From Nitrospirota bacterium (GTDB lineage Bacteria; Nitrospirota; UBA9217), in the NCBI GenBank assembly GCA_021814615.1, contig JAKAHZ010000004.1, positions 6,246 through 70,245 of the forward strand: DNA of 64,000 nucleotides, given 5' to 3'. This document shows positions 4,800 through 50,874 of the stretch, one piece after another; position 1 is the stretch's first letter, and each line of letters begins with the position of its first letter. The notes under the pieces were generated by a model. It ran no database searches. It was not told the DNA's origin and was given only the letters and a program-made list of their open reading frames with translations. A program made the translations under genes and the position numbers.

Positions 4800-4815
4800 C
4801 ATAGAGGTGCAATCG

Positions 4816-4847
4816 GAAGGACATGCCCTGCATGGGCATGTCCTTCC
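4816..4847 (+). other. Perfect 14-bp stem / 4-nt loop hairpin immediately downstream of the cytochrome gene stop
   Basis: ggaaggacatgccc-tgca-gggcatgtccttcc. No following T-tract. Confidence 0.6.
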
Positions 4848-4955
4848 GTCTCCTTCCGGGGAACGTTTGTAACGGATCCCCCGAAGGTGAAAGGCAGCGG
4901 GATACCTTCCCGCGCATGAAGAACCACTATCGATTTACGGAAAGGAGGCGGCCAC

Positions 4956-7066: not shown

Positions 7067-7803
7067 CGAGAAGCGCGCTTCTGACGATGCTCCTCTGCGC
7101 GGGGCTGTTGGCGGTCATCGGCTGCGGGACGGCGAACGATAAGGCGACATTTGACAGCGACAAGGGCCATGAGACGGGCTGGCTGCCCGCAAAGCATGCC
7201 GAGGCGGCAAAGGCCGACTACGCCGCATGCGCGGAATGCCATGGCGAGCAGTACGACGGCGGCCAATCCAAGGTCTCATGCACGGCGTGCCATTTGGGCG
7301 GCCCTACGTCGGCTCATCCCGAGGACTGGACCGGAAATGCAGCGCAGAATCACGCTCCCTATGCAAAGGAAAACGGCATTGCTTCCTGCGCTGCCCAGTA
7401 TTGCCACGGCACGCAGTACGAAGGCGTGGCTGAGAGCGGCCCTGCCTGCATATCGTGCCACATGGGCGGACCGGAGTCCATGCATCCGAAGGACTGGGGA
7501 AACTACACGTACGTGAAGCATGCTTTAACCGTAACCTATGCCGGATCGGATACGTCCAAGTGTGCGAATGCAAACTGCCACGGAAGCGATCTGACCGGCG
7601 TAAAGGGGAGCGGACCCTCTTGTACGAGCTGTCATCTGGGCGGCGCTTTCAGCGTGCACCCGGAAAGCTGGAAAGCCAACTTGTCCGAGCATAAGGCCTA
7701 TGTAGCGAACAACGGCTCGCTGACATGCTCCAATGCCGTGTGTCATGGCACCCAATTGCAGGGTGTTGCCGGAAGCGGACCTGCCTGCACTACCTGCCAT
7801 TAA
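7045..7803 (+). CDS. Lipoprotein multiheme c-type cytochrome with mixed CxxCH and CX4CH heme motifs (triplicated ~60-aa module)
   Basis: Lipobox LLAVIGCG. Motifs CAECH, CTACH, CAAQYCH, CISCH, CANANCH, CTSCH, CSNAVCH, CTTCH. The module CxxCHLGGP..HPEDW/ESW...CX4CHGTQ..GVA.SGP.C.SCH recurs three times. Confidence 0.8.
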   Translation: MPSMPQITRSALLTMLLCAGLLAVIGCGTANDKATFDSDKGHETGWLPAKHAEAAKADYAACAECHGEQYDGGQSKVSCTACHLGGPTSAHPEDWTGNAAQNHAPYAKENGIASCAAQYCHGTQYEGVAESGPACISCHMGGPESMHPKDWGNYTYVKHALTVTYAGSDTSKCANANCHGSDLTGVKGSGPSCTSCHLGGAFSVHPESWKANLSEHKAYVANNGSLTCSNAVCHGTQLQGVAGSGPACTTCH

Positions 7804-8835: not shown

Positions 8836-10179
<1,344 letters not shown>

Positions 10180-10263
10180 AGATAGTGTCCTGGAAGTGAG
10201 GAGGGTCGGGCCGGAAGGACCCAGGGCGCGGCTGTGTCAAAACGTTGTTACCCAGCCTTCGGA

Positions 10264-10800
10264 TTACAATTCCTCGATCGAAATCTCCCTGTTGGTGTAG
10301 ATGCATATGTCTGCGGCGATCTTCATCGCCTCCCCGACGATGCTGCGGGCATCCAGTGTCGTGTGTTCCGAAAGCGCGCGCGCCGCTGCCAGGGCATAGG
10401 CGCCGCCCGAGCCGATGGCTGCGATGCCGTTCTCCGGCTCAATGACATCGCCGTTGCCGGAGAGGACGAAGGAACGCTCGGCATCGGCGACGATCATGAG
10501 CGCCTCGAGCCGGCGCAGGACTTTATCGGTTCGCCAGTCCTTCGCCAGTTCGACTGCCGACCGCGTCAGATTGCCGCGGTATTGTTCGAGTTTGGCCTCG
10601 AACTTCTCGAAGAGCGTAAAGGCGTCGGCGGTGGCCCCGGCAAAGCCCGCCAGGATCCGTTCGTTGTACAGTCTCCGGATCTTGACCGCGTTATGCTTCA
10701 TCACCGTAGCTCCGACGGTCACTTGACCGTCGCCGCCGATGGCGGTCCTTCCGTTCTTCCTGACGCAGAGGATCGTGGTTGCGTGAGGTGCGGCGTGCAT
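10264..10800 (-). CDS. hslV: ATP-dependent protease subunit HslV (ClpQ-like, with short N-terminal extension before the catalytic Thr)
   Basis: ...[12 protein letters not shown]...GDGQVT..G...KIRR matches HslV. The HATTI context resembles B. subtilis ClpQ/CodW. The exact start (M1, M5 or M10) is uncertain. Confidence 0.8.
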
Positions 10801-10823
10801 GGCGGCAGGGTCCATGGCCAAGA

Positions 10824-11729
10824 TCATTCTTCTCCACCGCTTTCCGATTTCCCGGCGCGACGCGCGCGGGGATGGGCGCGGTCATAGGCGTCCATGAGCG
10901 AATCGAGGTTCAGGTGTGTGTAACGCTGCGTTGTCGATAGACTGGCATGGCCGAGCAGCTCCTGGATCGAGCGCAGATCGGCTCCGGATTCCAGAAGGTG
11001 CGTGGCAAAGCTGTGCCGCAGCGTGTGCGGGGTCGCATTGCTCTGCAGTCCCAGCGCTTTTCGATATTTGGCTACAATACGCTGAACGCTCCGGGCTGTC
11101 AAGCGTTTTCCCGACGGGCCGGTAAAGACGGCGTCGCCGGATGCCGTTTCAGGGCTCTTGCGCGAGCAATAGGCGTCAATGGCGCCGAGTGCATGCCGGC
11201 CGATGGGAACAATCCGCTCCTTGCGGCCTTTGCCGCGGACCCGGAGCAGCCGGTCCTGCCGGTTGATGTCCGCCTGGTCGATCGCCACCAGCTCGCCGGC
11301 GCGGATTCCGGCGGAATAGAGCGTTTCGAGCACTGCTCGGTCGCGGAGAGCGGCGGAAGCATCGCCGTCCGGAGATGCGAGCATGCGGAACGCATCGTCA
11401 ACGCTCAGGACCGCCGGAAGCCTTTTCTCCCGTTTCGGCGTTGAAAGGAGCGCCGCGGGGTTCCGGGCCACGACTCCTTCCCGCAAGAGGTAGCGGAACA
11501 ACGAGCGAATGGCCGCAAGTTTGCGGGCGATGGTCGCTTTCGCCAGCGAACCGGCGTACAGATGGCCCAGATAGCGCCTGAGCTCCAGGTGATCGACATC
11601 GGCGATGTCCCTGGGGCCGAAGAAACGGCAGAACTCCTCGAGATCCGTGCGGTAGCTCCGGTCGGTATGGGGCGAAACATTCCGTACCGTGCGCAGGTAG
11701 ACGAGGAAATCTGCAGCGTGCTTTTGCAT
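10824..11729 (-). CDS. xerC: Tyrosine site-specific recombinase XerC/CodV-like
   Basis: C-terminal [32 protein letters not shown] motif of phage-integrase-family recombinases. Sits immediately upstream of hslVU, as codV does in B. subtilis. Confidence 0.85.
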
Positions 11730-11788
11730 GCACCAACTCTAGCTCAGTGAAGATGAATTTGCAAGGGGAAGGGACGTCCGGCAGGGTG

Positions 11789-14011
11789 TCAGGAGGGGCG
11801 GGAAAGGGCTTTCTTGATCGCCATCCCGATGTCCTGGAGGGAAAAGGGTTTCTGAACGAATCCTGCTGCGCCCTGGCGCAGGAGCTCATTGATGCCCGAA
11901 AAATTGTTGTTGCTGTACCCGGAATAGAGCAAGACGGGGACGGCCGCGTCGATGGTCTTGAGCGAACGAAATACCTCGCTGCCCCCCATTTTTGGCATGA
12001 CCATGTCGAGGATGACAAGAGAGATGTCTCCCCGCCGCTCACGGAATTGCGCTATGCCGCTTACGCCGTTCTCGGCCAGGAATACCGTGTAGCCGAGGGA
12101 TGTCAGGATGTCCCTGCAGAGTTCGCGCACATGCGGTTCGTCGTCAATGACCAGAATCGTACCGCTGCCGCGGATGTCCGTGAGTTCATCGTTTGCAGGC
12201 TGAACGGCAACGCGGGTAACGGGAAGATAGATATTGAACCGTGTGCCTTTGCCCGGTTCGCTGTAGAGGTTAATGTACCCGCCGTGGTTGTTGACGATCG
12301 AATGAACGATGTAGAGGCCGAGTCCCGATCCTTTGCCGGCTTCCTTGGTGGTGAAAAAAGGATCGAAGATTTTCGTCTGGGTTTCCGCATCAATACCCGA
12401 TCCCGTATCAGCGATCGACAGCCTGATGAAACCGCGTTCCTCCGGGTGTCCATCCCCGGTCGTCAAGCTGCGGTCGGACACCAGGGCGGTTTCGATGATG
12501 AGCCTGCCGCCCTTTGGCATGGCGTCCCGCGCATTCACGGCAAGATTGATGATGACCTGCTGGAGCTGCGAAGCGTCGGCGTCGGTGACCGGCAGGCTTT
12601 CGTCGAGGGCCGTCACGAGTTCGATGTCCTTGGGGAGGCTCCGGGAGAGGAGATCGAGGGAGCTCCGTACGATGTCGTTCACGGCAACCGGTTTGGACTC
12701 GAGCTGTTCCTTGCGGGTGATGGTCAGTATCTTCTTGCCGAATTCTGCGCCGCGCTTCGCCGCGTCGTGAATGATCTGCGCCGGCTTGTGGAGCGGGTCT
12801 CCCTCTGTCGTTTGCCTGCAGATGATGCTGGAGTATCCGAGGATAGCCGTGAGAAGGTTATTGAAATCATGTGCCATGCCGCCGGCCAGGGTTCCTACGG
12901 CCTCGAGCTTCTGGGAGCGCATGAGGCGTTCCTGGAACCTTCGCTGTTCCGAGATGTCGATCAGGTATCCGTCGTATCCCGCGATTTTTCCCTGCGCATC
13001 CCGCTCGGGATAGAGCGAAAGGGAAATCGTCAGTTCGCTCCCCTCCCTTCCGACGGCGCGCATATCGCGATGGTGGATCTCTCCGGCCGCGGCCATGGCC
13101 AGGCAGGCAGCCGCGTCGCTGTCTCCGAGGATCGCCTCGCAGAGCGAGGAGATGGGGCCGAAAAGTTCGTGAAACCGGTTGTTTGCCTCGATCAGCATCC
13201 CCTGGGGATCCATGCGGAAGATACCGTGATCCACGCGTTCGAAGAGCGACCGCATCCGGCGGTCCGATTCAACGAGTTGCCGCTCCTTGTCCGCAACGGA
13301 GCGGCACATGGCATGGAATTCCCGGTCCAGGTCCTTGAGCTCCGCGGGCGCGGACGCGGGAAGCGGGGTAGCGGCCGGCACGGCGCCGTGGCTGAACGCT
13401 TCGACGGCCTGATGGATTCTGAGCACCGGATTCACGATCATCCTGCGGATCAGGGCGACGAGCACGATAATGGCGAAAACGGCGATGGATGCGGCGATCA
13501 CCATGGTCGTGATGATGAGCCGGCGCACCTCGGTGCGCAGCGTCGCCGACGACAGGGTGAGCCTGACATAGCCGATGGTGACCGGCTCCGACGAAGGGGA
13601 GGGATGATACACGATGGGGCTGTAGAAATCGTAACTGTCTTCCTGCACGTAGTGGACGGCTTCGGGGGACTGTTCGAAGTGCCGGATCGCCTCGGGAAGG
13701 GGCGCCGAGGTGATCTGGTCGAAGGGGAAGGCATCAATGCTGTTCCAGATCGTGGAAAAGACCTGAAGCCGCGTGACATCGGGCGCCTGGATCACATAGG
13801 ACGCCTTGCGCAGAAGGTCCAGGTCCTCCTTGACCAGCCCTTCTTCCACGGCCTTGGAGAGCGTGTAGGTCAGCGTCTCTCCCCGCATGATCCGGTTCCG
13901 TTCCCGGCTTGCGGTATAGGTCGTCGTGAAAAATACCGTGATGACCGTTCCGATCACCACGATGATCACCGTGACGGCAATCGCGATGCGGGTCTGCAGG
14001 GAGCCCGTCAT
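11789..14011 (-). CDS. Hybrid sensor histidine kinase (2 TM + periplasmic domain, HAMP, PAS, HisKA, HATPase_c, C-terminal receiver)
   Basis: H-box AHDFNNLLTAILGY. N/G1/G2 boxes (NLAVNARDAM, DTGSGI, GSGLGL). Receiver domain ILVIDDEPHV...ILDMVMP. Two hydrophobic segments flank a ~150-aa loop. Confidence 0.85.
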   Translation of the reverse strand: MTGSLQTRIAIAVTVIIVVIGTVITVFFTTTYTASRERNRIMRGETLTYTLSKAVEEGLVKEDLDLLRKASYVIQAPDVTRLQVFSTIWNSIDAFPFDQITSAPLPEAIRHFEQSPEAVHYVQEDSYDFYSPIVYHPSPSSEPVTIGYVRLTLSSATLRTEVRRLIITTMVIAASIAVFAIIVLVALIRRMIVNPVLRIHQAVEAFSHGAVPAATPLPASAPAELKDLDREFHAMCRSVADKERQLVESDRRMRSLFERVDHGIFRMDPQGMLIEANNRFHELFGPISSLCEAILGDSDAAACLAMAAAGEIHHRDMRAVGREGSELTISLSLYPERDAQGKIAGYDGYLIDISEQRRFQERLMRSQKLEAVGTLAGGMAHDFNNLLTAILGYSSIICRQTTEGDPLHKPAQIIHDAAKRGAEFGKKILTITRKEQLESKPVAVNDIVRSSLDLLSRSLPKDIELVTALDESLPVTDADASQLQQVIINLAVNARDAMPKGGRLIIETALVSDRSLTTGDGHPEERGFIRLSIADTGSGIDAETQTKIFDPFFTTKEAGKGSGLGLYIVHSIVNNHGGYINLYSEPGKGTRFNIYLPVTRVAVQPANDELTDIRGSGTILVIDDEPHVRELCRDILTSLGYTVFLAENGVSGIAQFRERRGDISLVILDMVMPKMGGSEVFRSLKTIDAAVPVLLYSGYSNNNFSGINELLRQGAAGFVQKPFSLQDIGMAIKKALSRPS

Positions 14012-19118: not shown

Positions 19119-19796
19119 TTATGAACGCCCGGCTCGCCGGAAAAGCGCGGGCAGAAGGGTAAAAAGGGCGAGGATCACCAGTGCAAGGAGCATCCTGCCG
19201 GAAAGGATATCACCGGCGGTCCTGATCGTTTCCAGCTGCATTCCCGCAAAGGCGAAGACCGCCGTTCCCGGAAGGATGCCGACGGCAGTGGTCCAGAGGA
19301 AGTCCTTGAGCGGGATGGACGTGAGGCCCGACAGGAAATTGACGAGAAAAAAGGGAAAGACGGGAATGAACCGGAGGGTGAGCAGGTACCGCCTGCCGTT
19401 CCGGTCCAGTTCTTCATTGAACCGCCTGAGCTGGAGGGCATAGGCCTGCTGCAGCCGGGCCCCGAGCAGGTGCCGGGCGGAAAGAAACGCGAGCGCTGCG
19501 CCCATGGTCGCGCCGAGATCGACGGCGGCAACGGCGGCCGCGACGCCGAAGAGATAGCCGCCTGCCACGGTCATGACCGCTGCGCCGGGGATCGAAAGCG
19601 CCGTGACGCATATATAGGCCAGGACGTACAGGAACAGAGCGGCTGCGCGATGGTTGTGCACGAAGAGCGCGAGCGTGTCGCGGTGCTTCCGGATGTTCTC
19701 GAAGGTGAGCAGATCGCCGACCCCCGCGAAACGGAGCGCGATGATCGCCGCGGCGAACAGGAGAAGCAGCGAGAGTTTTGCCGGCCGGGAGGTCAC
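19119..19796 (-). CDS. TVP38/TMEM64 (DedA/SNARE-associated) family membrane protein
   Basis: Multi-TM 225-aa protein with typical DedA-family topology. Overlaps the downstream gene by 4 nt. Confidence 0.6.
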   Translation of the reverse strand: MTSRPAKLSLLLLFAAAIIALRFAGVGDLLTFENIRKHRDTLALFVHNHRAAALFLYVLAYICVTALSIPGAAVMTVAGGYLFGVAAAVAAVDLGATMGAALAFLSARHLLGARLQQAYALQLRRFNEELDRNGRRYLLTLRFIPVFPFFLVNFLSGLTSIPLKDFLWTTAVGILPGTAVFAFAGMQLETIRTAGDILSGRMLLALVILALFTLLPALFRRAGRS

Positions 19797-21231
19797 GTGC
19801 GCCTCTTGCCGAAGAGGCGGGCGGCGATCTTCACCAGAGGATTCTTGCGCAGGCGGTCGATGTAGTAGTATTTCGCCGGCTGGCGGACCACGTCGGTGTA
19901 GGTGGGGTAGGCATGGATCATGGACGAGAGGTCGGTGAAGGGCCGGCGGAGATGGCGGAGGAGCTGGGCTTCATGGATTAGCTCGCCGGCCCGCTCTCCC
20001 AGGATGTGGGCGCCCAGCAGCATGCCGCGGCGGTCGCAGATGAATTTCGCCATCCCGAAGGAGGTGCTGTCGGTCCTGCTTCGGTCGATGTTCGCGTAGT
20101 CGTACCGGAGCACGGAGATCGATTCCCCGTGGAGCGTTCTCGCTTCCTCCTCGGTGATGCCCGCATGGGCGAGTTCGGGATCGGTGAAGGTGCACCAGAC
20201 CACCGTATTGTAGACCGCCCGCTTCCGGAAGGGCAAGAGGGCGTTCCGCGTTGCCGTGATGGCCTGGTATTCGGCCATATGGCTGAATTGATAGGGGCCC
20301 ACCACATCGCCGCAGGCATAGATGTTCCGGGCCGTGGTCCGCAGATACGCGTCGGTCCGGATGCCCTTCGCGCCGTAGGCGACGCCGGCGTTCTCCAGGT
20401 CAAGTCCCGCCGTGTTCGGCGCGCGCCCGACGGCGACGAGGAGTGCCGCGCTTTTCACCGTCTCGCGCCGACCCGAACGCTGCGCGGTCAGGTTCACCGT
20501 TTCCCCTTCCCGTGACACGTTCAGGACCCGTGTCTCCGGGAGGATCCGGATTCCTTCCTCCTGCAGGCGGCCGGCCAGCATGCGGGCGAGCTCACGGTCC
20601 TCATGCGGCAGGATGGCATCGTACTTTGCTATGACCGTTGTGGGTACGCCGAGGCGGGAGAAGGCCTGGGCCAGTTCGATGCCGACCGGACCGGCGCCGA
20701 GCACCGCGAGGGACGACGGGAGGTCTTCGATCGCGAAGATGTTCTCGTTCGTATAATAGGGGACGCTTTCGATGCCTTCGATCGCCGGAACTGCGGCGGA
20801 GGTGCCGGTGCAGATCATGAATTTCGACGCCGAGAGGACCGTGCCGTCCAGATCGACCAAGTGGTTGTCGAGAAAACGCGGGCTGCCGAAGAGCACGGCG
20901 ATGCCCGCCTTCTCGAAGACCGACGCGGGATGGCTGTCCGAGACCTTTTTGACTGCTGCCCGCGCATAGGCCATGGCGTTCTTCGCCGAAAGGACGGGAT
21001 TCCCGGCGAGCGACAGACCGTAGGTCTCCAGATGCCGGGTCTGGTGCGCAACGCGCGCCGCCTTGAGCAATGCCTTGCTCGGCACGCATCCCGCGTTGGT
21101 GCATTCGCCGCCGAGCAGGTTCTTCTCGATCATGGCGACCTTCTTGCCCATGCCGGCGGCGATCTTGGAGGTCACAAAGCCGGCTGCGCCGGCCCCGATC
21201 ACGATGAGGTCATAGTCATAGCGGGGCATGG
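19793..21231 (-). CDS. FAD-dependent pyridine nucleotide-disulfide oxidoreductase (dihydrolipoamide dehydrogenase / mercuric reductase-like)
   Basis: GXGXXG motif IVIGAGAAG. Redox-active disulfide motif GGECTNAGCVPSK. Start taken at the internal MPRYDYD. Confidence 0.8.
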
Positions 21232-21922
21232 TCTTCCTCCGGGATGCGGGCGGTAAAGGCGGGATCGGCAAGCAGCGCCAAGGTCCTTCTGCACGAGCCC
21301 GTCGAACCTGCGTTTCTGCGGGCAAGGTCCAAAAGGTCTTCGATGGTATCGACGTCCCGGAACTGCCGCAATTCACGGACCGTCAGGTTCGCCGAGTGCA
21401 GCCGCTCGCGGGTTGCCGCGAGGACCCGCGGTGTGCTCCAGGGGATGTTCCGGAAAAGCCCTGACCTGAATGACCCGCGCCGGAAGCCGATGAGATAGTA
21501 GCCGCCGTCCGCTGCCGGACCGATCACCGTATCAGCATCGTCAAGCGCCTGCGCTGCGGATTCGAGGATGCCGGCGGACAGATCGGGAATATCGCTGCCG
21601 ATAAGTATCGCCCCTTCCGATCCGGATGCGAAGGCCCGGCTGAAGGCATGGGCCATCCGCTCGCCCAGATCAGCGCCGGTCTGCGGCTGATAACGGCGAT
21701 GCGGGCCGAGCCACCGGGCCAGGTGGCCGGCCGCTTCAGCGGGATGGAATACGATGATGCAGGGATGGCCGGAGGCATCGATGGCATCGAGCATGTCCTC
21801 CACGCATGCCCGGTAGATCTTTTCCGTGCGGTCCCGTCCCAGGGACGCCGCAATCCGGGATTTGACCGGTTCGTGAAGGGGGGATTTGACGAAAAACAGT
21901 ATGGGAACGGTATCGCGCATGG
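21216..21922 (-). CDS. DUF2064 / rSAM-selenodomain-associated transferase 1-like (TIGR04282-like)
   Basis: ~235-aa nucleotidyltransferase-like fold (...ILFFVKSP...GGYYLIG...). Positioned in the cluster with the rSAM/Cys-rich and GT2 genes. Confidence 0.55.
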
Positions 21923-21993
21923 TCGTCAGGACATCCTTCGTATCGATACTATACCATGCGTGCAAGGGGGTGTCCTGCGAATTGCGAGCAGGG

Positions 21994-22839
21994 TCACCAG
22001 GACAGGAGATAGTCCGCGTCGCTGGTTTTGGCGGTCCGGGGATCGCCCTGGACGGGACCCATGGGAAGCACCACGCGCGACGCAATTGTCGCCTCTTCAG
22101 CCACTTGAGCGGGAATGCCTTTTCTCCAGGCATGGCCGAAGCCCGTGAGTACGGCCACTTTCATGCCGGGATTGTGCTTCCGATAGTTCAGGAGGTAGAA
22201 CGCCATCGACTTGTCCCACACCTGCTGGGCTTCGCAGAAGTGCAGGAATTCGCTGGATGAGCGATGTTCGTGGCCGCGATAGGCATCTCTGATGAACCGC
22301 TGGTAGGCGGGATCCACATTGCAGCTCAAGCCCGGGGGGAGCTGCTTCCGCAGTTTTTCCGGCAGAGCGTCGAATCCCTTCTTGGCGACGGCGTCGGAGA
22401 TGCTGTCGGGAATATTCAGGCCGATCAGGGGGATGCGGTGTTCGCGGGTGTACAGGAAAATATCGCGGTAGAGCGGCCAGGGCATGCGCCAATTTTCATA
22501 GTAATCGGGGAGGAACCGCTCGAGGGAGAGCGTTCCTCCGACCCAGGCATCAAGGGTCTTCTGGCTCTCGGCGCGAAACATCTCCAGCCCCACGGCAAAG
22601 GAGGTGTCGGTCTCGTGCAGGGCCTGAATGATGTCGAGTTCCAGCCGGTGCAGCTCGGGTTCGTCGTGCAGTTCCCCGATGTAGATGATGTCCGCGGTCC
22701 TCAGGTCGTCCATCATCGTTTCGAAGGAGACGGTTTTCCCGTCGCGGACGCGGAACACTCCGCCGTCGCTTTCCTGTCTGGCCGGAAGGAAGGCGACGAT
22801 GAGGAGCAGGCAGATGCCGATGATCAGAGCATACTTCAT
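21994..22839 (-). CDS. ChaN-like heme-binding lipoprotein (Cofac_haem_bdg / Tiki superfamily)
   Basis: Signal/lipoprotein N-terminus MKYALIIGICLLLIVA. ChaN-family motifs IIYIGELHDEPE and GFGHAWR. Confidence 0.6.
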   Translation of the reverse strand: MKYALIIGICLLLIVAFLPARQESDGGVFRVRDGKTVSFETMMDDLRTADIIYIGELHDEPELHRLELDIIQALHETDTSFAVGLEMFRAESQKTLDAWVGGTLSLERFLPDYYENWRMPWPLYRDIFLYTREHRIPLIGLNIPDSISDAVAKKGFDALPEKLRKQLPPGLSCNVDPAYQRFIRDAYRGHEHRSSSEFLHFCEAQQVWDKSMAFYLLNYRKHNPGMKVAVLTGFGHAWRKGIPAQVAEEATIASRVVLPMGPVQGDPRTAKTSDADYLLSW

Positions 22840-22973
22840 ACTTGATTGTGGCTCACCTCTGGGTCCCTGTCAAGGCGTCTGGGAGGGATAGATGTAGATG
22901 GCGATGAAAGGAACCGGGTGCTCTCCCCCGGTTGTGTTCAGCAGGCGACCGCCTGCGGTGTCGTCGAGCCTGT

Positions 22974-23935
22974 TCAGGAGGAACCCTGGCCCGCGGTGCA
23001 GCCGGCGCAGTGGCGCTGGAGGCGGATCGTTCTTGCCATGAGCCGGGCCCGGTCGAAGTCCCTGATATGGAGCGGCGACCCTTCGGGGAGAGGGATGCCG
23101 GCTGCAAGGTTGAAATCGCAATCGTAGAGCAGTCCGTTCCATCCTACGCTGATCAGTTTTCTGCACATGAGGCCATTGAGTGTCGCTGGATTGTAGGCAG
23201 CTTCGAGCGACCGGAGGTAGGCGTCGAGCCTTCCTTCCCGGTCCAACGCTTCGCGGAACCTTCCGACGGGCATGTTGGCGAAAGCATAGAGGCGGTTGAA
23301 ACTGATGCCGTAGCGCTCCGCCAGGGTATTCCGGAAACCCTGCTCCAGCGACGCCTGGGGCGGCGGCAGAACGGCGCCGCGCGGATTATATACAAGGCTC
23401 AGGGGCCTCCCGCCGGCAACGCCGAACCCGAGGCCGTTCAACTCCCGGAGCGCGGCAATGCTCTTGTGGAACACGCCGTTCCCCCGGACCGCATCGACGT
23501 TATCCTCAAGATACCAGGGAAGGGAGGCGACGATCTCCACGGCCTCATCGGCATAGAAGCGGGGCAGATCCTTGTGGCCGTCTTCGGAAAAGACCGCCAG
23601 GTTCGTCCGTACGATCACATGCCGGCTGAGCCTGCGGGCGGAGCGGACAAGGTGGCGGAAGAGGGGATGCAACTCGGGAGCGCCGCCGGTAATATCCAGG
23701 GCGAGTGAAGGCATCGCTGCAAGGACCGCGAGCACCTGATCCATCGTTTCGCGGACCATCACCTCCGAACGCCCCGGTCCCGCGGAGAGGTGGCAATGGG
23801 AGCAGGAAAGATTGCAGCGGTACCCGATGTTTACCTGCAGAACGGCGATATCCAGCGGATCGAGAGTGCGCGGCGGCGAGAGGCGCGCCTGTCCTTCAAG
23901 GGGAATGCTGTTCTTGTTAAGCGGGATGATCATCG
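22974..23935 (-). CDS. Radical SAM/Cys-rich domain protein (ArsS-like, TIGR04167-like); ends ...CAGCTAGQGSS-TGA and may read through via selenocysteine to 22938
   Basis: CNLSCSHC radical SAM motif. C-terminal Cys-rich HCAGCTAGQGSS followed by an in-frame TGA, then 11 more sense codons (TGSTTPQAVAC), then TGA. Start taken at the internal MIIPLNKN; the ORF extends upstream to 24113. Confidence 0.75.
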
Positions 23936-24030
23936 GCTTGTTCAGTGGGGCAGATCGTCCCCCGGTCGCGGTTACTACTATACCACCTCCGGGACGATCT
24001 CTGCAAAAGGATAGGGGGATTCCGTCGTTG

Positions 24031-24756
24031 CTAGCGGTAGTACTTTGCCAGCTCTTCGGGAGGGACGCCCGCGCAGTAGAGGCATTGGAGCATCCAGTTA
24101 CGCGTTGTGGCACGAAGCACGCCTTCCCGTTCCCATCGCCTGGCCGAGGTGAGCGCCTTTTCCGGGAGCACGGCGATCCGGTCTCCCCGTTTCCTGATCC
24201 TCGCCATGAGCTCTACATCTTCCATGAGCGGAATCTCGCGGAAGCCTCCGATCCGTTCGAAATAGGCGCGTCTCAGGAAGATCGCCTGATCGCCGAAGGG
24301 GACCCTGGTGATCCGGGTCCTGCAGGCAACGTAGCGCTCGGTGATCCGGAAATACCAGCGTGAAGAATCGATGCCCAGGTCGAAACAGCCGCCGACGGAC
24401 AAGGGATCCAAGAGACAGGCGGCAATGAGCGAGTCGGCGTGTGCGGGGAGCAGGGTGTCTGCGTGGAGGAAAAGGATGACCTCTCCTGCGGCGCGGCTCG
24501 CGCCACGGTTCATCTGGATCGCACGTCCGGGGGCCGAGAGCAGAGAAACGACATCTTGAACATCCAGCGCGCTGAGCGTGCTTCCCTGCGGATCTCCGTC
24601 CACGACGATGATCTCGACCGGCAAACGGTCGCAGACAGCGGTGACGCGCCGGACTGTTCCGTTGATCCGGTTCTCCTCGTGCAGGACCGGGATGACGACG
24701 GAAAGGAACGTCGGCTGGAGTCCGGGTGCATCAGGGATGGCTGAAAGATGTTCCAC
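24031..24756 (-). CDS. Family 2 glycosyltransferase (rSAM/selenodomain-associated transferase 2-like, TIGR04283-like)
   Basis: GT2 signature VVIPVLHEE...IIVVDGDP. Length 241 aa. Adjacent to the rSAM gene. Confidence 0.65.
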   Translation of the reverse strand: MEHLSAIPDAPGLQPTFLSVVIPVLHEENRINGTVRRVTAVCDRLPVEIIVVDGDPQGSTLSALDVQDVVSLLSAPGRAIQMNRGASRAAGEVILFLHADTLLPAHADSLIAACLLDPLSVGGCFDLGIDSSRWYFRITERYVACRTRITRVPFGDQAIFLRRAYFERIGGFREIPLMEDVELMARIRKRGDRIAVLPEKALTSARRWEREGVLRATTRNWMLQCLYCAGVPPEELAKYYR

Positions 24757-25410: not shown

Positions 25411-25556
25411 GAACCGCTCCCCGCGTCAATACTTGACAGATTCGTAAGAACCCACCACAGAGTCACGGAGACACAGAGAAAAGCAAGTTGAAAATACGAG
25501 GATTTTCTCAGTGTCCTCAGTGTCTCCGTGGTAATAATCGACTTACTGTGACTTTA

Positions 25557-27344
25557 TCAATACTTATGACAGTTCTTGCAGATATCCTTGGGCGCGTTCG
25601 CCGGATACCGGAAGAGCTTCATCGAATCGGAGCTGTGCGGATTGTGGCAGCTGGCGCAGGAGAAAGGCTTCCCTTCGCGAGCGGGGTCCCGTTCTTTCTT
25701 GCTCAGTTTGTGCGGTTTTCCGCCGTCGGCATGCTTCGGGATGCCGAGCGGATGGCCGCCGGTGCCGAATCCGGAGATGGCGTGTGGCTTCTTGGCTACG
25801 TCGTCGTGGCAGTCGAGGCAGACGAGCGAGGGCGCCTTGAGCAGGATGGCATAGAAATCCGACGAATGCGGCGTGTGGCAGGAGAGGCACATGCCGTCGG
25901 CGACGGGCGGATGCACGTTCTTCTTCGTGAATTCCGCCTTGTCGTGGCAGGTATAGCAGAGATCGGGGACCGCCGAAAGGAGGAGCCGTTCGTTCTTCGT
26001 TGAATGGGGGGTGTGGCAGCCCGTGCATCCCATCCCGACCGCGGCGTGAACGACCTGTTTCGTGAATTTGGCCTTGTCGTGGCAGGTGTAACAGAGGTCG
26101 GGCTGCGCTGAGAGAAGCAGCCGTTCGTTCTTTGACGAATGGGGGGTATGGCAGGCGGTGCATCCCATGCCGAGCGCGGCATGCACCACTTTCTCGGTGA
26201 ACTTGGTCTTGTCGTGGCACTGGTAGCAGAGCTCGGTTCCTTCGGCCTTCAGCAGCTTGCCGGTATCGGTCGAGTGGGGGCTGTGGCAGGCGGTGCATCC
26301 CATGCCGATTGCCGCATGCACGACTTTCTCGGTGAACTTGGCCTTGTCATGGCAGGTGTAGCAGAGGTCGGCGCCGTCAGCTTTCAGGAGCTTGTCGGCC
26401 TTGGTCGAATGAGGGCTGTGGCAGGCGGTGCATCCCTTGCCCAGAGCGGCATGGACCGTCTTGTGCGTGAACTGCGCCTTGTCATGGCACTGGTAGCAGA
26501 GCTCCGGCGCCTCGGCTTTCAGGAGCTTGGGCGTGGCGGTTGAATGGGGATTGTGGCAGGATGTGCAGCCCATGCCGATGGCGCCGTGGACGGTCTTCTG
26601 CGTGAACTTGGATTTGTCGTGACACTGGTAGCAGAGCTCGGCGCCTCCGTTTTTCAGCAGTTTCTCCGATGACGTGGAATGGGGATCATGGCAGGCGGTG
26701 CATCCCATGCCGATGGCCGCATGGACCGTCTTCTGCGTGAACTTGGACTTGTCGTGGCACTGATAGCAGAGCTCCGGCGGCTCGGCCTTCAGGAGCTTGG
26801 GCGTCGGCGTGGCATGGGGGGCATGGCAGGCGGTGCAGCCCATGCTGATTGCGGCGTGGACCGTCTTCTGGGTGAACTTCGACTTGTCGTGGCAGGTGAA
26901 GCAGAGCGCCGGCTGCTCCTCGTTCAGGAGCTTGGCGTTGTCCGAAGAATGGGGATTGTGGCAGCCGGTGCAGCCCATGCTGACGGCCGCATGGACCGTC
27001 TTGTTCGTAAAGGAGGCCTTGTCATGGCATTGATAGCAGAGCTCGGGCTGCTCGGCGGAGAGGCCCCGCTTGATATTGTTCGTGATCTTGTGCGGAACGG
27101 GGATCATGGCGCCCAGTCCGGTGTGGCAGGTGCGGCACCCCATGTCCAGCGCCGCATGGACGACCTTCTGTTTCGCCAGGCGGGAATGGCACATCAAGCA
27201 GTCCACTTCCTCGGCTTCTGCGGCAGGCGGCGGAAGGAGCAGCAGGAACGCAGCCAGTACCGCCAGAGCCGCCATACGCCGGAGCACTGCGGAGAACGGG
27301 CGCCTGCGGGCTGGATTCATTTCGAAATGATGTGCTGTAGCCAT
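25557..27344 (-). CDS. Tandem-repeat multiheme c-type cytochrome (~23 CxxCH; nine 45-aa diheme repeat units)
   Basis: Signal peptide present. Repeated unit KFT.KTVHAA.GMGCT.CH.PHS....KLLKAE..ELCYQCHDK. Ends CKNCHKY. Confidence 0.85.
   Translation of the reverse strand: MATAHHFEMNPARRRPFSAVLRRMAALAVLAAFLLLLPPPAAEAEEVDCLMCHSRLAKQKVVHAALDMGCRTCHTGLGAMIPVPHKITNNIKRGLSAEQPELCYQCHDKASFTNKTVHAAVSMGCTGCHNPHSSDNAKLLNEEQPALCFTCHDKSKFTQKTVHAAISMGCTACHAPHATPTPKLLKAEPPELCYQCHDKSKFTQKTVHAAIGMGCTACHDPHSTSSEKLLKNGGAELCYQCHDKSKFTQKTVHGAIGMGCTSCHNPHSTATPKLLKAEAPELCYQCHDKAQFTHKTVHAALGKGCTACHSPHSTKADKLLKADGADLCYTCHDKAKFTEKVVHAAIGMGCTACHSPHSTDTGKLLKAEGTELCYQCHDKTKFTEKVVHAALGMGCTACHTPHSSKNERLLLSAQPDLCYTCHDKAKFTKQVVHAAVGMGCTGCHTPHSTKNERLLLSAVPDLCYTCHDKAEFTKKNVHPPVADGMCLSCHTPHSSDFYAILLKAPSLVCLDCHDDVAKKPHAISGFGTGGHPLGIPKHADGGKPHKLSKKERDPAREGKPFSCASCHNPHSSDSMKLFRYPANAPKDICKNCHKY
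25941..27155 (-). repeat. 135-nt tandem repeat array (about 9 units) inside the cytochrome gene
   Basis: The gtcgtggcac/gtcatggcag motif recurs at 25941, 26076, 26211, 26346, 26481, 26616, 26751, 26886 and 27021 with an exact 135-nt period. Confidence 0.85.
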
Positions 27345-27377
27345 GACGACGAAATCCTCCGTGAACAGGGATATCGA

Positions 27378-28187
27378 TCAGTATTTATGGCAGTTCTTGC
27401 ACAACTCCATCGGCGTGCGGGCGGGATACCGGAACAGCCTGACAGAGTCGGAACTGTGGGGATTGTGGCAGCTCGTACAGGAAAAGGGTTTGCCCTGACG
27501 GGCGGGATCCATCTTCTCCTTCTTTTTTCCTTCCGGTTCTTTTTTCTCCTTCTTTTCGGCCTTGGGCAGGCCCAGGGAATGCCCGTTGCCGCCGAACCCC
27601 GCGAGGGCATGGGGTCTCTTGGCGACTTCCTCATGGCAGTCGAGGCAGATCACGGACGGAGCCTTCTGAAGCAGGGCATAATTATCCGAGGAGTGGGGAT
27701 CGTGGCAGACCAGGCACATTTTATCCGCGACGGGCGGATGGACGTTCTTCTTCGTGAATTCCGCTTTGTCGTGGCAGTTCATGCACAGGTCGGGCACCGG
27801 AGCGATCAGGAGCTTCTCGTTGTCCGATGCATGGGGATTGTGGCATGCAGTGCAGCCCATGCCGATGGCAGCATGAACGACCGTGTGGGTAAACTTCGCC
27901 TTGTCGTGGCATCCATAGCAGAGCTCGGGCTGGTCCGCGGAAAGGCCTTTGGCGAAGGAGGTGGTTTTCTTGTGCGGCACCTTGAGCGCGTCATCGATGC
28001 CGCTGTGGCAAGCCGGGCAGCCCATGGAGACCGCAGCATGCACGACCTTCTTCTTGGCCGTGAGGCCGGCATGGCACTTGGAACAGTCGACCTCCTTCTT
28101 TGCCGGCGCTTCTGCAGCTGATGAGGGAAGGACGAAGAACAGGGAAACGATTGCCGCACTCAGGGCACAGCTGAGAAATCTGCGCAT
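27378..28187 (-). CDS. Multiheme c-type cytochrome (9 CxxCH), short paralog of the 595-aa repeat cytochrome
   Basis: Signal peptide present. Same diheme module and an identical C-terminus CKNCHKY. Confidence 0.85.
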   Translation of the reverse strand: MRRFLSCALSAAIVSLFFVLPSSAAEAPAKKEVDCSKCHAGLTAKKKVVHAAVSMGCPACHSGIDDALKVPHKKTTSFAKGLSADQPELCYGCHDKAKFTHTVVHAAIGMGCTACHNPHASDNEKLLIAPVPDLCMNCHDKAEFTKKNVHPPVADKMCLVCHDPHSSDNYALLQKAPSVICLDCHEEVAKRPHALAGFGGNGHSLGLPKAEKKEKKEPEGKKKEKMDPARQGKPFSCTSCHNPHSSDSVRLFRYPARTPMELCKNCHKY

Positions 28188-28442
28188 CTATCACAACTCC
28201 TGTTGATGGGGATGATAAGAGGCCGGAGACAACAGGCTGAATTGTAGCCCATTTTCCTCTTCCATGCAATGGTCTTGTGCAGAGAGTCCTGGATTCCCGA
28301 CAGAATGCGAGGGCGTCGGACAGTTGCGCATCTCGACGATAGGACGTTCTTCTGCAGCGAGAGGAAAAAGTCCCCCGGTCCTTGAAAAGGACCGGGGGGA
28401 GAGGAGGCCGGGACAGGGGGAGTCCCGGACACGAGAAGGTTT

Positions 28443-40332: not shown

Positions 40333-41391
40333 CTATGCGGGTTGGCAATGCGGTGATCCCTTGGAGGGGAAGAGCCGGGCCGCAGCCATCCAAATCAGGA
40401 GGGGCGCGACCATACCGAAGATGCGTGCGGACCAGAGAATCTTTGTGAGGAAAGCCGGGTCCGGCCCCCGCCACGCAAAGACGATGCCGGAACAAAGGAC
40501 GGTCAGAAGGTGCTGCAGCGAGAGCAGCAAGAAGCCTGTCGCGACACGTTTGGCCTGCGTCGCTCGTCGGACCGAGCGGGCATTCGCCGCGAAGAGCACC
40601 GACAAGAGCACGGCATTCAGGATATCGTAGGTAAGGTCGCTGTGCAGGGTGCCTGCCGCCGTTCGGAACAGGATGATCCTTCCCTCGGCGGAAACCGTGA
40701 GGCTGCTCGGGACGGCGCCGATGAGGGCGTTTGCCGTTGCGGCGATGAGTACCGCGTAGCGTTCGATCAGCAGATGAATGGCCCCGAACGCGGCGATGCT
40801 CGCGAGGATGCAGGAGAAGACCGTTCGCGCCGCCGCGCTGGTAAGCGGGATGCTCTTGTTGACCCAGAGGAACCAGGTCGCGAAGACGATGACGGCAAAT
40901 GCGCCCTGCAACAGGTAGACATGCACGAGGTCGAACAGGTTGTTTGCATAATGGCCTACCATGCCGAGTACGCCGATCCGCAATATGTTCAGGGCCATGA
41001 TGACGAAAAATCCGGTCAGAATCCCTGCAAGGCGGTAGGCGCGGGTGTGCGAACGGAACGGCAGCACGCCTGCGCAGTAGATGGCGAAATACTGAAGGGC
41101 GGTGCATTCATGGGTTATCTCCATGGGAAAGTCGTAGAGGGTCAGGATCGTTCCCGAGAGCGCGGCGGGAATAGAGAACAGGCTCCAGAACCGGTAAGCA
41201 AGATAGGCAGTAAAGGGCTTTACCCAGTCGAATATTCCCCAAGGAGACTGCGAAAGGCAGAAAAATGCCGTCAGGAAAAAAAGAAAGGTAAGGATGAACC
41301 TGCGGTCGATGCTGAAGAGGCGCGGTGTGTCGTTCTGATTCTGCATGGTTGCAAACGTCTCTGCCGGGGCGGCGGTCGTCTGAATTCGCAC
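40333..41391 (-). CDS. Exosortase/archaeosortase-family polytopic membrane protein (putative)
   Basis: About 8 TM segments. Conserved Cys/Arg/Asn context (THECTALQYF, ALNILRIGVLG). Lies immediately downstream of a protein bearing a C-terminal TM + Arg-cluster sorting signal. Confidence 0.45.
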   Translation of the reverse strand: MRIQTTAAPAETFATMQNQNDTPRLFSIDRRFILTFLFFLTAFFCLSQSPWGIFDWVKPFTAYLAYRFWSLFSIPAALSGTILTLYDFPMEITHECTALQYFAIYCAGVLPFRSHTRAYRLAGILTGFFVIMALNILRIGVLGMVGHYANNLFDLVHVYLLQGAFAVIVFATWFLWVNKSIPLTSAAARTVFSCILASIAAFGAIHLLIERYAVLIAATANALIGAVPSSLTVSAEGRIILFRTAAGTLHSDLTYDILNAVLLSVLFAANARSVRRATQAKRVATGFLLLSLQHLLTVLCSGIVFAWRGPDPAFLTKILWSARIFGMVAPLLIWMAAARLFPSKGSPHCQPA

Positions 41392-41448
41392 GGGCCGGGA
41401 TCGTTCAGGACCCCGGCCCGTCCGTGTCTTCTGGGTTGTGCTTCCCGG

Positions 41449-43182
41449 CTATGCTGATCGGTTCTTCCTGCCTCTCCTGCCGTTCATGACGGCCGCCAGG
41501 ACCATGGCGGCCGCGAGCACCGAATACAGGATGCGGTTGCCGGCAGGCGTGGCGGTCGTCATTACCGGCCCCGTCGCCACGGTCGATGTCACCGAGTTAC
41601 TCGTGACAGCCGTGTGGTTCGCGTCGGCGGCGGTTGTGACGCTCGTGGTCTCCGACTGGCCGTTGGTCGCTCCGGCGGGCGCGCTTACGGTCAGGGTCGC
41701 CGTCAGGAACGATCCACCCGCGTTGATCGGCCCTATCGACGCCGGCAGCGTCGAGGCGTTGAAGTTCGCGTTGGGAGTGGCCGGCAGGTCGGTACTCGAC
41801 AGAGAGAATGTGGTGGATCCGCACGCAAGCTGGGAGCTGTCATTGTTCGTTACCTGGATCGTATAGTTTATGGATCCTCCGGGGGCGACATTCTGCGATG
41901 CAGGGGTTAACGTGACCGTCGGATTGGCCCGCGTGCAGACCGGGGCCGTGATGGTCAGGGTCGCCGAGGCGGAGTCGTTGTACGTGGGGGTGCCGAGGCC
42001 CGATCCCGTGCCGCCCGTTACCCGGGCGGTCAGGGTGTTGGTCGTCGTTGCCGTCGCCTGAATGTCCAACGTGATGAGGTAGTTCGCGGTGGTCGTCGTG
42101 ACGCTCAGGGGCGTGCTGAACGTCAGCGTCGCCGAGTTTGTTCCGACCGTGTAGGTGACGCCCGAAACCAGCGTGTCGACGCCCGCATTGTACGCGCCGA
42201 GCGTGCCGGCGTCGTTATAGACGCTGATGTTCGCGACGTTGGCCGCGGTAAATTGCGCGCTCGTGGTCAGGACCAGGGTGTTGATCTGGCCGGTGCCCGA
42301 CGACAGGTACGCCGTGAAGCTGTCGATCGCGTTGTTGGCCGAGCCCTGCTGCGCATTCGCGTTCGCCACCGTCGCGCCGTTCCCCACAGAGAGGTTGCCG
42401 GATGCGACCGCGGGCAGGAACGTCGCGATTGAGCCCACCCACCAATTGCTGGCTGAAGAGGTCAAGGTGGCTGATGACGTTGCCGCCGAATTCGCGGTGT
42501 TGTCAGTCATGGCAGTTGAGACGTTGGTTGCGGACCGTGAAAGGTTCAGCGTCCAGGCGCCGTTGGTCCCGCCGGGCGTATTGAACGTCGCATTGCCGCC
42601 CACGGTGAAGCCGCCGATCAGCAGTTCGTTCGCCTGCGCTGTGGCTGCAGTGGTGCCTGACGATAGTGCCGTGCCCTGCGCGGCGGTATTGTTGATGGCT
42701 GTTTTGTCAAGGGGCGATGCCGTCAACACGCCGGAATACTCCTGCACCACGGCAGAGGTGTCCCAGGTGCCGATGGTCAGCGTCACCGTGGTCTGGCCCG
42801 CAGTAGTGTTCGGGCAATACCATATCGCGTGGTCTGAAGGCCCGCCTCCGTTCACGCCTGATGCGGCCGTCGCTTTGGCCCAGGTGCATCCGCCGCCGCT
42901 CACGGCCGTGACGCCGCCGGCAGCCGCGTCATTGGTTCCCGCTACGAGGATAAGAGTATCTCCGGCGGCCGTCGACGGGATCGTGACCGCTAGGCTGGTA
43001 CAGGAGACGCAGGAATTCGTTCCCCCCGTGCCCACCCGCGCCGCAGCTGAGGCCGCGGAGGGGCTATACGCCTGATGTGCAAAAACGCCGAGAAGCAGGG
43101 TGATCGTCATGGCGAAACGGCTCGTCGGCCGATGTTGCCAATTACTCAAACTCAGACTGGTCCTTCGCGAGGATCTGTTCAT
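41449..43182 (-). CDS. Secreted Thr/Ala/Ser/Gly-rich low-complexity protein with C-terminal TM + RRGRK sorting signal (putative exosortase substrate)
   Basis: SD aaggagg sits 7 nt before the ATG at 43180-43182. Signal peptide present. C-terminus ...TPAGNRILYSVLAAAMVLAAVMNGRRGRKNRSA. Confidence 0.6.
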   Translation of the reverse strand: MNRSSRRTSLSLSNWQHRPTSRFAMTITLLLGVFAHQAYSPSAASAAARVGTGGTNSCVSCTSLAVTIPSTAAGDTLILVAGTNDAAAGGVTAVSGGGCTWAKATAASGVNGGGPSDHAIWYCPNTTAGQTTVTLTIGTWDTSAVVQEYSGVLTASPLDKTAINNTAAQGTALSSGTTAATAQANELLIGGFTVGGNATFNTPGGTNGAWTLNLSRSATNVSTAMTDNTANSAATSSATLTSSASNWWVGSIATFLPAVASGNLSVGNGATVANANAQQGSANNAIDSFTAYLSSGTGQINTLVLTTSAQFTAANVANISVYNDAGTLGAYNAGVDTLVSGVTYTVGTNSATLTFSTPLSVTTTTANYLITLDIQATATTTNTLTARVTGGTGSGLGTPTYNDSASATLTITAPVCTRANPTVTLTPASQNVAPGGSINYTIQVTNNDSSQLACGSTTFSLSSTDLPATPNANFNASTLPASIGPINAGGSFLTATLTVSAPAGATNGQSETTSVTTAADANHTAVTSNSVTSTVATGPVMTTATPAGNRILYSVLAAAMVLAAVMNGRRGRKNRSA

Positions 43183-43343
43183 GAGAGTTCCTCCTTGTTT
43201 TTTCCGAACGTACAAAAACCCTCAAAATGCTCGCTCATGCAAGACTCGAAAACGTGTGCAGGGAACTCAGACGTAACATCAGAGGATTCCACCGAACACT
43301 TGGAAATGAACCTGAGCGAGACCGGGACGGTTACGGGAAAAAC

Positions 43344-50810: not shown

Positions 50811-50846
50811 TCACGTGCTGTGTATCAGGAAGACAGGAATACATTC

Positions 50847-50874
50847 GAGGGGCCTTCGGGCCCCTTTTTTTATT
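50847..50874 (+). terminator. Rho-independent terminator after paralog 1
   Basis: Hairpin gaggggcc-ttcg-ggcccc followed by tttttttatt. Confidence 0.8.

Follow-up and report, generated by a model that had tools for sequence, protein, structure and literature searches.

MtrA is the decaheme transmembrane wire of Shewanella. Among other multiheme cytochromes, the known filament subunits carry 4–8 hemes each and polymerize, c7 repeats are triheme units of ~70–80 aa, and those that abound in the periplasm of Geobacter have been suggested to store electrons. To our knowledge, Shewanella and Geobacter are the only bacteria in which electron passage over the ~20-nm periplasm is well understood; both rely on small diffusing cytochromes. 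The 10 bis-His hemes of MtrA span 80 Å, and the heme chains of the pentaheme NrfB and the tetraheme STC superpose on segments of it (PMC7198977).

The two cytochrome genes described here were found on the reverse strand of a contig from an uncultured Nitrospirota bacterium, within a 64-kb stretch of DNA that was analyzed as a whole (hereafter the window). Gene B (27378–28187), the first of the pair, encodes a 269-aa protein with nine CxxCH motifs, and gene A (25557–27344), the second, encodes a 595-aa protein with 23; CX3-4CH variants were found in neither. The initial annotation had described A as a cytochrome with ~23 hemes whose 45-aa diheme unit recurs at a 135-nt period, and B as an adjoining 9-heme paralog with an identical C-terminus. 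Both descriptions held. The repeats are in frame with the coding sequence and far stronger than chance would give, and CKNCHKY forms the last seven residues of A and of B. The GC3 of gene A was 0.81, a value like that of genuine genes elsewhere in the window. The stop codon of gene B is separated from the start of gene A by 33 nt, and a ribosome binding site signal precedes each gene (AGGAG, 9 nt upstream of the gene B ATG; GGAGG, 11 nt upstream of the gene A ATG). An intrinsic-terminator-like hairpin on the same strand (28372–28398), with a 12-bp stem containing 9 GC pairs and followed by a T-run, is placed between the pair and the upstream gene for a DUF4382 lipoprotein. Taken together, the short gap, the two ribosome binding sites and the upstream terminator suggest that A and B form a two-gene operon. 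Just 3′ of the gene A stop codon, RNA folding revealed a long imperfect hairpin without a T-run (25452–25534, reverse strand), with a free energy of −39.6 kcal/mol (z = −3.5) that was equaled by none of 200 shuffled sequences; it may be a transcript-end or stabilizing element.

The first 44 residues of A (27213–27344) correspond to a predicted Sec signal peptide, in which, as read by eye from the translation, the n-region is rich in Arg, a hydrophobic core follows and the cleavage motif is AEA; no lipobox Cys was seen. The true start of A may be Met9. The signal peptide of B is ~25–27 aa long. Both proteins are multiheme c-type cytochromes of the doubled-CXXCH type (PF09699/TIGR01905), predicted to be secreted without lipidation and to have a probable periplasmic location.

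Tandem Repeats Finder detected period-135 arrays across positions 25936–27056 (scores 494–1029, 77% matches), along with super-periods of 270 and 405 nt. These arrays, the unit table, identity matrices and nearest-neighbor analysis defined eight regular diheme units of 135 nt or 45 aa (25941–27020, reverse strand; aa 109–468), which hold hemes 4–19 at a strict heme spacing of 22/23. Nine tandem repeats had originally been counted; eight are in perfect register, but the ninth is diverged, shifted by one residue (20–27% identity in ungapped register), and constitutes the start of the C-terminal module. The array is preceded by an N-cap (27021–27212; aa 45–108) with hemes 1–3 at spacings of 21 and 33, delimited from spacing patterns in homologs and conserved throughout the subfamily described below, with C49, H53, H63, C70, H74, and C103 invariant. 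It is followed by a C-cap (25557–25940; aa 469–595 and the stop codon) with hemes 20–23, in which the diverged ninth unit leads into a 54-residue linker with invariant H521 and H531, and CKNCHKY comes last. In B, a single regular diheme unit (aa 96–140) lies between a 3-heme N-cap and a 4-heme C-cap, and the latter is 69% identical to that of A. Of the "about four units" first ascribed to B, only this one is regular, although Pfam does score four doubled-CXXCH stretches.

As initially noted, each unit of A contains two CxxCH motifs and two further His (VH...GCxxCHxPH...CxxCH). These extra His, and also H521, H531, and H570 of the C-cap, were invariant or nearly so in 40–47 homologs. A has 51 His in total, and the 26 non-motif His of its mature chain suffice for 23 hemes, so that bis-His ligation, as had been predicted, could apply to all of them. 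A Met before the first CxxCH (MGC) is nearly conserved in most units, which makes His/Met ligation of some hemes conceivable, although in unit 5 the position is taken by Lys.

Based on profile matches, the repeat unit is the known doubled-CXXCH domain, which places two CxxCH in each ~41-aa domain and occurs in tandem copies; in A, the 22/23 spacing runs through all eight units. PF09699 scored 422.5 bits in A against a cut-off of 20.6 (11 stretches, E = 1e-129) and 142.1 bits in B (4 stretches, E = 4e-42), while TIGR01905 scored 370.8 and 122.6 bits, respectively, against a cut-off of 25.2. PF14522 reached 106 bits in A, against 422 for PF09699, and the period is a 45-aa diheme one, in agreement with the earlier view that A is distinct from triheme c7-repeat proteins. 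TIGR03508 (DmsE/MtrA family) scored 296 bits in A against a cut-off of 192.2, a value drawn from five partial stretches, the best covering model positions 86–223 of 258; in B it scored 92.3 bits, under the cut-off. The match to PF22678 (NrfB-like) was weak. Doubled-CXXCH proteins fell into 5229 representative clusters at E ≤ 1e-3, some with 20–42, 52, and 129 CxxCH. A is a member of unusual length in a widespread family and not a new kind of protein, and its heme count by itself is not exceptional, since doubled-CXXCH proteins with 20–129 hemes exist elsewhere.

The repeat count of A is genuine. A tandem array in short-read metagenome assemblies might have been expanded or collapsed during assembly, but such an artefact is extremely improbable here and was rejected. 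The units share 64–84% pairwise nucleotide identity, the longest exact run common to two of them (26 nt) is shorter than usual assembly k-mers, the gene stays in frame throughout, and its caps show conservation. Gene A was recovered on seven contigs, and the five that were compared, originating from five samples and two pipelines, carried an identical gene, without a mismatch along the whole gene in ENA ERZ27237554 and in Logan SRR17201078, SRR13241953, and SRR13299515, and likewise along the final 1729 nt in ENA ERZ27237587; an expansion by assembly was thus not seen. Copy-number variation in a recombination-prone array had been anticipated. The number of hemes does vary between species, from 9 to 23, but it is the same in all compared assemblies of this organism. 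As the units are old and diverged, with third codon positions 56% identical, the array does not appear to be highly recombination-prone today.

By their sequences, A and B belong to a Nitrospirota-centered subfamily with fixed ends, of which no description was found in a literature search. In its members, k diheme units stand between an N-cap with three hemes and a C-cap with four, giving 7+2k hemes; homologs had 9, 11, 13, 15, 17, and 19 hemes, with 13 the commonest number and the end modules constant. B represents k = 1 (9 hemes) and A represents k = 8 (23 hemes), the longest member among the sampled homologs, a sampling that comprised a scan of a genome collection with a single protein as query and a word-indexed protein search, which missed A itself and a 17-heme homolog (locus L005). 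Long and short paralogs lie side by side in relatives as well, with 15+9 hemes at locus L001 and 15+11 hemes at L009. Nearest-neighbor analysis revealed that units u2, u3, u4, and u6, and likewise u7 and u8, are mutual nearest relatives at 78–84% identity, and the best identity to any foreign unit was ≤76% for the former group and ≤80% for the latter. As seen from these comparisons, the extra units of A arose by lineage-specific internal tandem duplication. Identities among the units of 0.78, 0.82, and 0.56 at first, second and third codon positions indicate that the copies have diverged since duplication under purifying selection.

No functionally linked partner gene was found inside the A/B operon. 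It is flanked by the DUF4382 lipoprotein gene, which ends in a separate terminator, and by nth with an arsenosugar cluster (ArsS/TIGR04283/TIGR04282). The DUF4382 lipoprotein was rejected as a partner because a strong terminator lies between, and because the pairing occurs only in the contigs of this organism and in none of the related loci. The downstream genes, nth and the arsenosugar cluster, were also rejected; a sister species (TopA 87%) keeps the arsenosugar cluster without the cytochromes. Among 13 other Nitrospirota loci, seven encode an NHL beta-propeller lipoprotein 3′ of the family gene, and four of these seven have a 4-heme cytochrome close by. A tblastn search of the whole window yielded neither an NHL-propeller homolog nor a match to the 4-heme protein, and with two larger cytochrome queries it matched genes A and B only; the conserved context of the family is therefore missing here. 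No porin gene adjoins the family genes, either at this locus or in the 13 related Nitrospirota loci examined. The sole barrel-like candidate in the window, a 555-aa protein (4956–6623), is encoded with an MtrC/OmcA-domain lipoprotein cytochrome in a porin-cytochrome-like cluster (249–7803), which is kept beside hslU/argB in related genomes. This cluster lies 18 kb from A/B on the opposite strand and has small cytochromes of its own.

MtrA (6r2q_A) was the sole significant PDB relative, both by sequence and by fold. It matched at E = 1.4e-20 in phmmer and at E = 1.9e-25 with the family profile, and in the alignment CxxCH falls on CxxCH and the H...CxxCHx[P/V]H pattern is kept. The AF2 models were heme-free and mediocre, with a pLDDT of 63 for A (residues 156–334 below 50) and 67.5 for B. 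In Foldseek, the B model matched 6r2q_A at E = 2.9e-4 (TM 0.51, 238 columns), and the A model at E = 4e-4 with a TMq of 0.20, owing to its poor middle. This expanded middle is unreliable because shorter homologs leave the alignment empty there; the rod shape and dimensions below were extrapolated from MtrA and not taken from the model. A resemblance to polymer or nanowire-type cytochromes, proposed at first, did not stand up, as no filament cytochrome appeared when both models were compared with the whole PDB at E ≤ 10. Profile matches to 7tfs, which we take to be OmcE (its table entry reads "Cytochrome c"), and to 9yuq, a 16-chain multiheme entry, were marginal (E ~1e-3 to 2e-4), fell in the last ~35 residues, and had no single stretch that passes alone. 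The PDB sequence matches also included 8k9e (E ~1e-4), a 219-aa chain named "Cytochrome c7-like domain-containing protein," and among those listed there was no description of a c7-repeat dodecaheme. NrfB and STC were absent from the significant sequence and Foldseek matches of A and B.

We consider A and B to be MtrA-like modular bis-His heme wires that would pass electrons through the periplasm, with a lineage-specific expansion of units in A (probability about 0.8). By homology to MtrA, both would fold as thin rods with little secondary structure, each holding its bis-His hemes in an unbroken line; scaling from MtrA gives extrapolated lengths of roughly 7 nm for B and 19–20 nm for A. A would then most likely carry, and could buffer, electrons in the periplasm, on a path linking quinol-oxidizing cytochromes of the inner membrane with acceptors in the outer membrane or the periplasm, for which the porin-cytochrome-like cluster of the same window is a candidate.

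Alternatively, the C-terminal part of A (or B) could be threaded, in the manner of MtrA, through a beta-barrel of the outer membrane whose gene lies elsewhere, such as the one at 4956–6623; the extra units would then project over the periplasm, and A, as one polypeptide, would conduct electrons between the vicinity of the inner membrane and the cell surface. This is consistent with MtrA being the closest solved relative, with the TIGR03508 score of A, with the presence in the window of a porin-cytochrome-like cluster that relatives conserve next to hslU/argB, and with an extrapolated length of about 195 Å, which would cover the outer membrane and much of the periplasm. However, that score is built from five partial repeat matches and B has only 92 bits, neither this locus nor the 13 related ones has an adjoining porin, and the cluster is distant, on the other strand and equipped with its own cytochromes, so that threading through a porin, while possible, seems unlikely. 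It is doubtful, too, that A serves chiefly to store electrons in the periplasm, as a capacitor and not a directional wire, whose 23 low-potential hemes would buffer fluctuating acceptors or donors, the paralog pair adding capacity. Such a role would suit the very high heme density (23 hemes in ~551 mature residues), the signal peptide without a membrane anchor and the operon without a dedicated partner, but it leaves unexplained the strictly conserved caps with a variable number of in-line units and the MtrA-like linear pattern of those units; moreover, storage and conduction are mutually compatible. That A is an extracellular, polymerizing nanowire-type cytochrome is very improbable, even though many stacked bis-His hemes are expected and the last ~35 residues resemble 7tfs and 9yuq marginally. 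Homology to nanowires was rejected on the Foldseek and profile searches described above, known filament subunits are short and polymerize while the length of A is built into a single chain, and secretion-system or filament-associated genes were absent among the neighbors.

With A and B taken as MtrA-like periplasmic wires, it is conceivable, if rather improbable, that the 7+2k subfamily acts as a set of molecular rulers, in which constant ends would dock to partners and the diheme units would set the reach in steps of ~1.8 nm. A, at about 19–20 nm, would span the entire periplasm as one polypeptide and link inner- and outer-membrane redox machinery directly, without diffusible shuttles, B would make short-range contacts, and long and short pairs (15+9, 15+11) would correspond to two fixed envelope distances. 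A family that varies in length by diheme steps between conserved ends would lend itself well to testing the idea of static periplasmic wires, and could also be used directly as a scaffold when heme wires of a set length are to be engineered. For now, the main outcome is that a well-documented protein of unusual length joins a very large, mostly uncharacterized class.

A and B share with the MtrA/DmsE/PioA/MtoA group (TIGR03508; 6R2Q chain A) the doubled-CXXCH pattern with distal His on either side of the motif, a Sec signal peptide without a lipid anchor, and an expected linear chain of bis-His hemes. They differ from it in heme number (10 in the MtrA group, 23 in A and 9 in B), in the perfectly periodic 45-aa unit of A, in having their own conserved N- and C-caps, and in lacking an adjoining MtrB/PioB-type porin or MtrC-type partner; in addition, the TIGR03508 cut-off is reached by A only via repeated partial matches, and by B never. 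Generic PF09699/TIGR01905 cytochromes from Geobacter, Anaeromyxobacter, Acidobacteriota, and others contain the same domain, also tandemly repeated, but the long ones have irregular spacing (e.g., 25/23/29) and other end modules, in contrast to the tighter subfamily of A, with its 7+2k series and strict 22/23 spacing. NrfB and STC are much shorter than A and non-repetitive. The GSU1996-type c7-repeat dodecaheme and the OmcS, OmcE, and OmcZ filaments have in common with A the concept of a long one-dimensional heme array; however, the c7-repeat proteins are made of triheme units, unlike the 45-aa diheme unit of A, and the filaments gain their length by polymerizing small subunits, whereas A attains its length within one chain.

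The cytochrome pair consists of two ORFs on the minus strand, gene B (27378..28187; 269 aa) and gene A (25557..27344; 595 aa), which starts 33 nt downstream of B. Both products end in CKNCHKY, and a motif scan counted 23 CxxCH motifs in A and 9 in B, with no CX3-4CH variants in either, in agreement with the initial annotation of a repeat-built protein with about 23 hemes and a 9-heme neighbor. Both are predicted to carry an N-terminal signal peptide that has an AEA-type cleavage site and lacks a lipobox (read from the translations, no predictor run). Shine-Dalgarno-like sequences, AGGAG and GGAGG, one per gene, were found at plausible distances, and the GC3 of the pair (0.74–0.81) was in line with that of the genuine genes elsewhere in the window.

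Tandem Repeats Finder revealed period-135 arrays at 25936..27056 (77% matches), with super-periods of 270 and 405 nt also present. Slicing protein A every 45 residues from residue 109 gave eight units in perfect register (u1–u8; aa 109–468, window 25941..27020, minus strand), with the consensus K.xFTxKxVHAAxxMGCTxCHxPHSxxxxKLLxxxxxxLCYxCHD. Each unit supplies two CxxCH sites, 22 residues apart, and two further His; a ninth slice was shifted by one residue, with 20–27% identity in register. Mature A has 26 non-motif His for 23 hemes, so it is possible that every heme is bis-His.

Nucleotide identity between the units of A was 64–84%, with values of 0.78/0.82/0.56 at codon positions 1/2/3, and the longest exact repeat within the gene was 26 nt. 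The units are old duplications under purifying selection, unlike the near-identical copies that mislead assemblers. A database look-up found the exact 595-aa protein on seven contigs; no precomputed Pfam hits are recorded for it there. Gene A was compared on five of these contigs, from five samples and two pipelines: it was full length with zero mismatches in ENA ERZ27237554 and in Logan SRR17201078, SRR13241953 and SRR13299515, and matched exactly in ERZ27237587, where the comparison covered the last 1729 nt only. The combined B and A region had zero mismatches in three contigs. Assembly expansion of the repeats is ruled out by the diverged units, the short exact repeats and the identical independent contigs, and the repeats were not out of frame. 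The initial annotation had also allowed for copy-number change between strains; no sign of it was seen within this population on the five contigs compared.

Pfam assigned the repeats to PF09699, “Doubled CXXCH motif” (11 stretches in A, E 1e-129; four in B), and NCBIfam to TIGR01905, while c3, c7 and NrfB-like models scored far below PF09699. The only strong match of A among all PDB sequences was 6r2q chain A (E 1.4e-20), aligned CxxCH on CxxCH with flanking His kept; a profile of 40 family members matched the same chain at E 1.9e-25. The molecule name in the hit table was wrong, and the fold search bore out that 6R2Q is the Mtr complex. AlphaFold2 models, built without hemes, were of moderate quality for both proteins (pLDDT 63 for A, 67.5 for B); residues 156–334 of A fell below 50 because shorter homologs have no residues in that part of the alignment. 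MtrA was the only significant Foldseek match against the PDB for both models (for B, E 2.9e-4, TM 0.51, 238 columns). The polymer or nanowire likeness proposed initially is unsupported: filament cytochromes were absent from the Foldseek PDB matches of both models, and the family profile matched 7tfs and 9yuq marginally, over the last ~35 residues only.

These results suggest, with a probability of about 0.8, that A and B are secreted, MtrA-like wires of unequal length with multiple bis-His hemes, serving periplasmic electron transfer. In MtrA, ten hemes, all bis-His, span 80 Å with their porphyrin planes parallel and perpendicular in alternation, and the protein chain forms little secondary structure (PMC7198977). 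Extrapolating from MtrA by heme number, B would be ~7 nm and A 19–20 nm long. It seems unlikely that the proteins form a length-tunable, single-chain wire spanning the periplasm. The MtrA-like pair might act as a free periplasmic bridge or ruler, be threaded through a distant porin in the manner of MtrA, or serve as an electron store, three versions that look the same to sequence tools alone.

A candidate partner for the threaded version lies in a porin-cytochrome-like cluster at 249–7803 (plus strand), comprising a 574-aa protein with 8 CxxCH whose start, close to the window edge, is uncertain, a 902-aa lipoprotein that carries 9 CxxCH and matches MtrC/OmcA domains II/IV, proteins of 147 and 252 aa with five CxxCH each, and a barrel-like 555-aa protein (4956–6623, plus strand). 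The last has a signal peptide, alternating strands, a final strand ending in ...VKAIYAF, and an Ala/Pro-rich tail of ~120 residues with about four copies of PAAPAEAPKPAAEPAAAPA; it had no Pfam or NCBIfam match and looks like an outer-membrane beta-barrel. A similar cluster adjoins hslU/argB in related genomes (L040–L042). The cluster might plausibly supply electrons to the periplasmic cytochromes or accept electrons from them. Elsewhere in the window, three tandem paralogous lipoproteins of ~990–1041 aa (47685–57280, plus strand) each carry a poly-Gly run directly after the lipobox Cys and CarboxypepD_reg and Ig-like (Big_5, Rha78A_N) domains, and an exosortase (EpsH-like) gene adjoins that of a 588-aa protein without a family match (40333–43215, minus strand).

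On the upstream side of the pair, a strong terminator-like hairpin (28372..28398, minus strand) follows a DUF4382 lipoprotein gene. Directly 3′ of the gene A stop is a long, stable, imperfect hairpin (25452–25534, minus strand; -39.6 kcal/mol, z -3.5), followed by no T-run, which may mark the 3′ end of the transcript or stabilize it. Beyond it lie nth and then an arsenosugar-type cluster (19793–24756, minus strand) encoding an ArsS radical SAM protein (TIGR04167, 398 bits), TIGR04283 and TIGR04282 transferases, a ChaN-like heme-binding protein, an FAD disulfide oxidoreductase and a VTT/DedA protein, and appearing unrelated to the cytochromes. The window neighbors do not accompany the cytochromes in the other genomes examined, except nth in the syntenic relative L001, so the pair is apparently a self-contained operon of two genes, with no adjacent partner gene. 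At 7 of 13 Nitrospirota loci (L006, L008, L009, L012, L020, L021, and L023), a gene of the 9–15-heme family is directly followed by one for an NHL-repeat six-bladed beta-propeller protein of ~340–390 aa, with a lipoprotein signal in the one sequence inspected (L008); a ~250-aa 4-heme cytochrome lies nearby in four of the seven and a 6–7-heme cytochrome in three. No NHL propeller homolog was found in the window, from which this recurrent module is absent.

In L001 (TopA 80% identical), the order is nth, a 15-heme gene, a 9-heme gene and dprA-topA-xerC-hslVU. The L001 genes (9187–12223) and those of L002 run nth, long (15-heme), short (9-heme), all on one strand, and the window runs short, long, nth. 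L001 and the window thus share the same paralogs in opposite order, with four fewer units in L001, indicating that the pair is rearranged relative to nth. L009 has 15-heme and 11-heme genes side by side.

The nearest homologs, from Nitrospirota or Thermodesulfovibrionales MAGs, had up to 57–61% identity and were mostly shorter than A. They share a plan in which hemes 1–3 are spaced ~21 and ~26–33 residues, followed by k CxxCH pairs at 22–24/23 spacing and a C-terminal module with a 33–62-residue gap, a final spacing of 26 and the end C..CHK[YMF], so that hemes = 7+2k. By CxxCH spacing, members have 9 (P0068, L018, L020–L023, and B), 11, 13 (the commonest class by far), 15 (P0001, L009, and L010, the last labelled Mn-Nitrospirae-1), 17 (L005, P0043), 19 (L007) or 23 hemes, A being the longest among those sampled. 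In alignments of 40–47 sequences, the invariant columns were the Cys and His of the conserved ends together with both additional His of each unit. In a unit nearest-neighbor analysis, u1 of A was closest to the first unit of a 15-heme homolog (76%), u2, u3, u4, and u6 to each other (78–84%), and u7 and u8 to one another (84%; nearest foreign unit L005.u4, 78–80%), which indicates that the extra length of A came from tandem duplication inside this lineage.

A word-indexed protein search missed A’s own sequence and the 17-heme homolog of L005, so its negatives call for caution where a protein is highly repetitive. HMMER, run exhaustively against 1.84 billion representatives, gave 5229 clusters at E ≤ 1e-3; the best matches include doubled-CXXCH proteins with 20–42, 52, and 129 motifs, whose spacings and ends differ from those of A, and the count of 23 hemes is therefore not remarkable by itself. 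Neither the domain nor the fold relative nor the general class is new, and the domain also occurs in much larger arrays. New but modest are the Nitrospirota 7+2k subfamily with conserved ends, for which no description was found in the literature searched, with A its longest observed member, and the documented lineage-specific expansion of A, with the short paralog B alongside.
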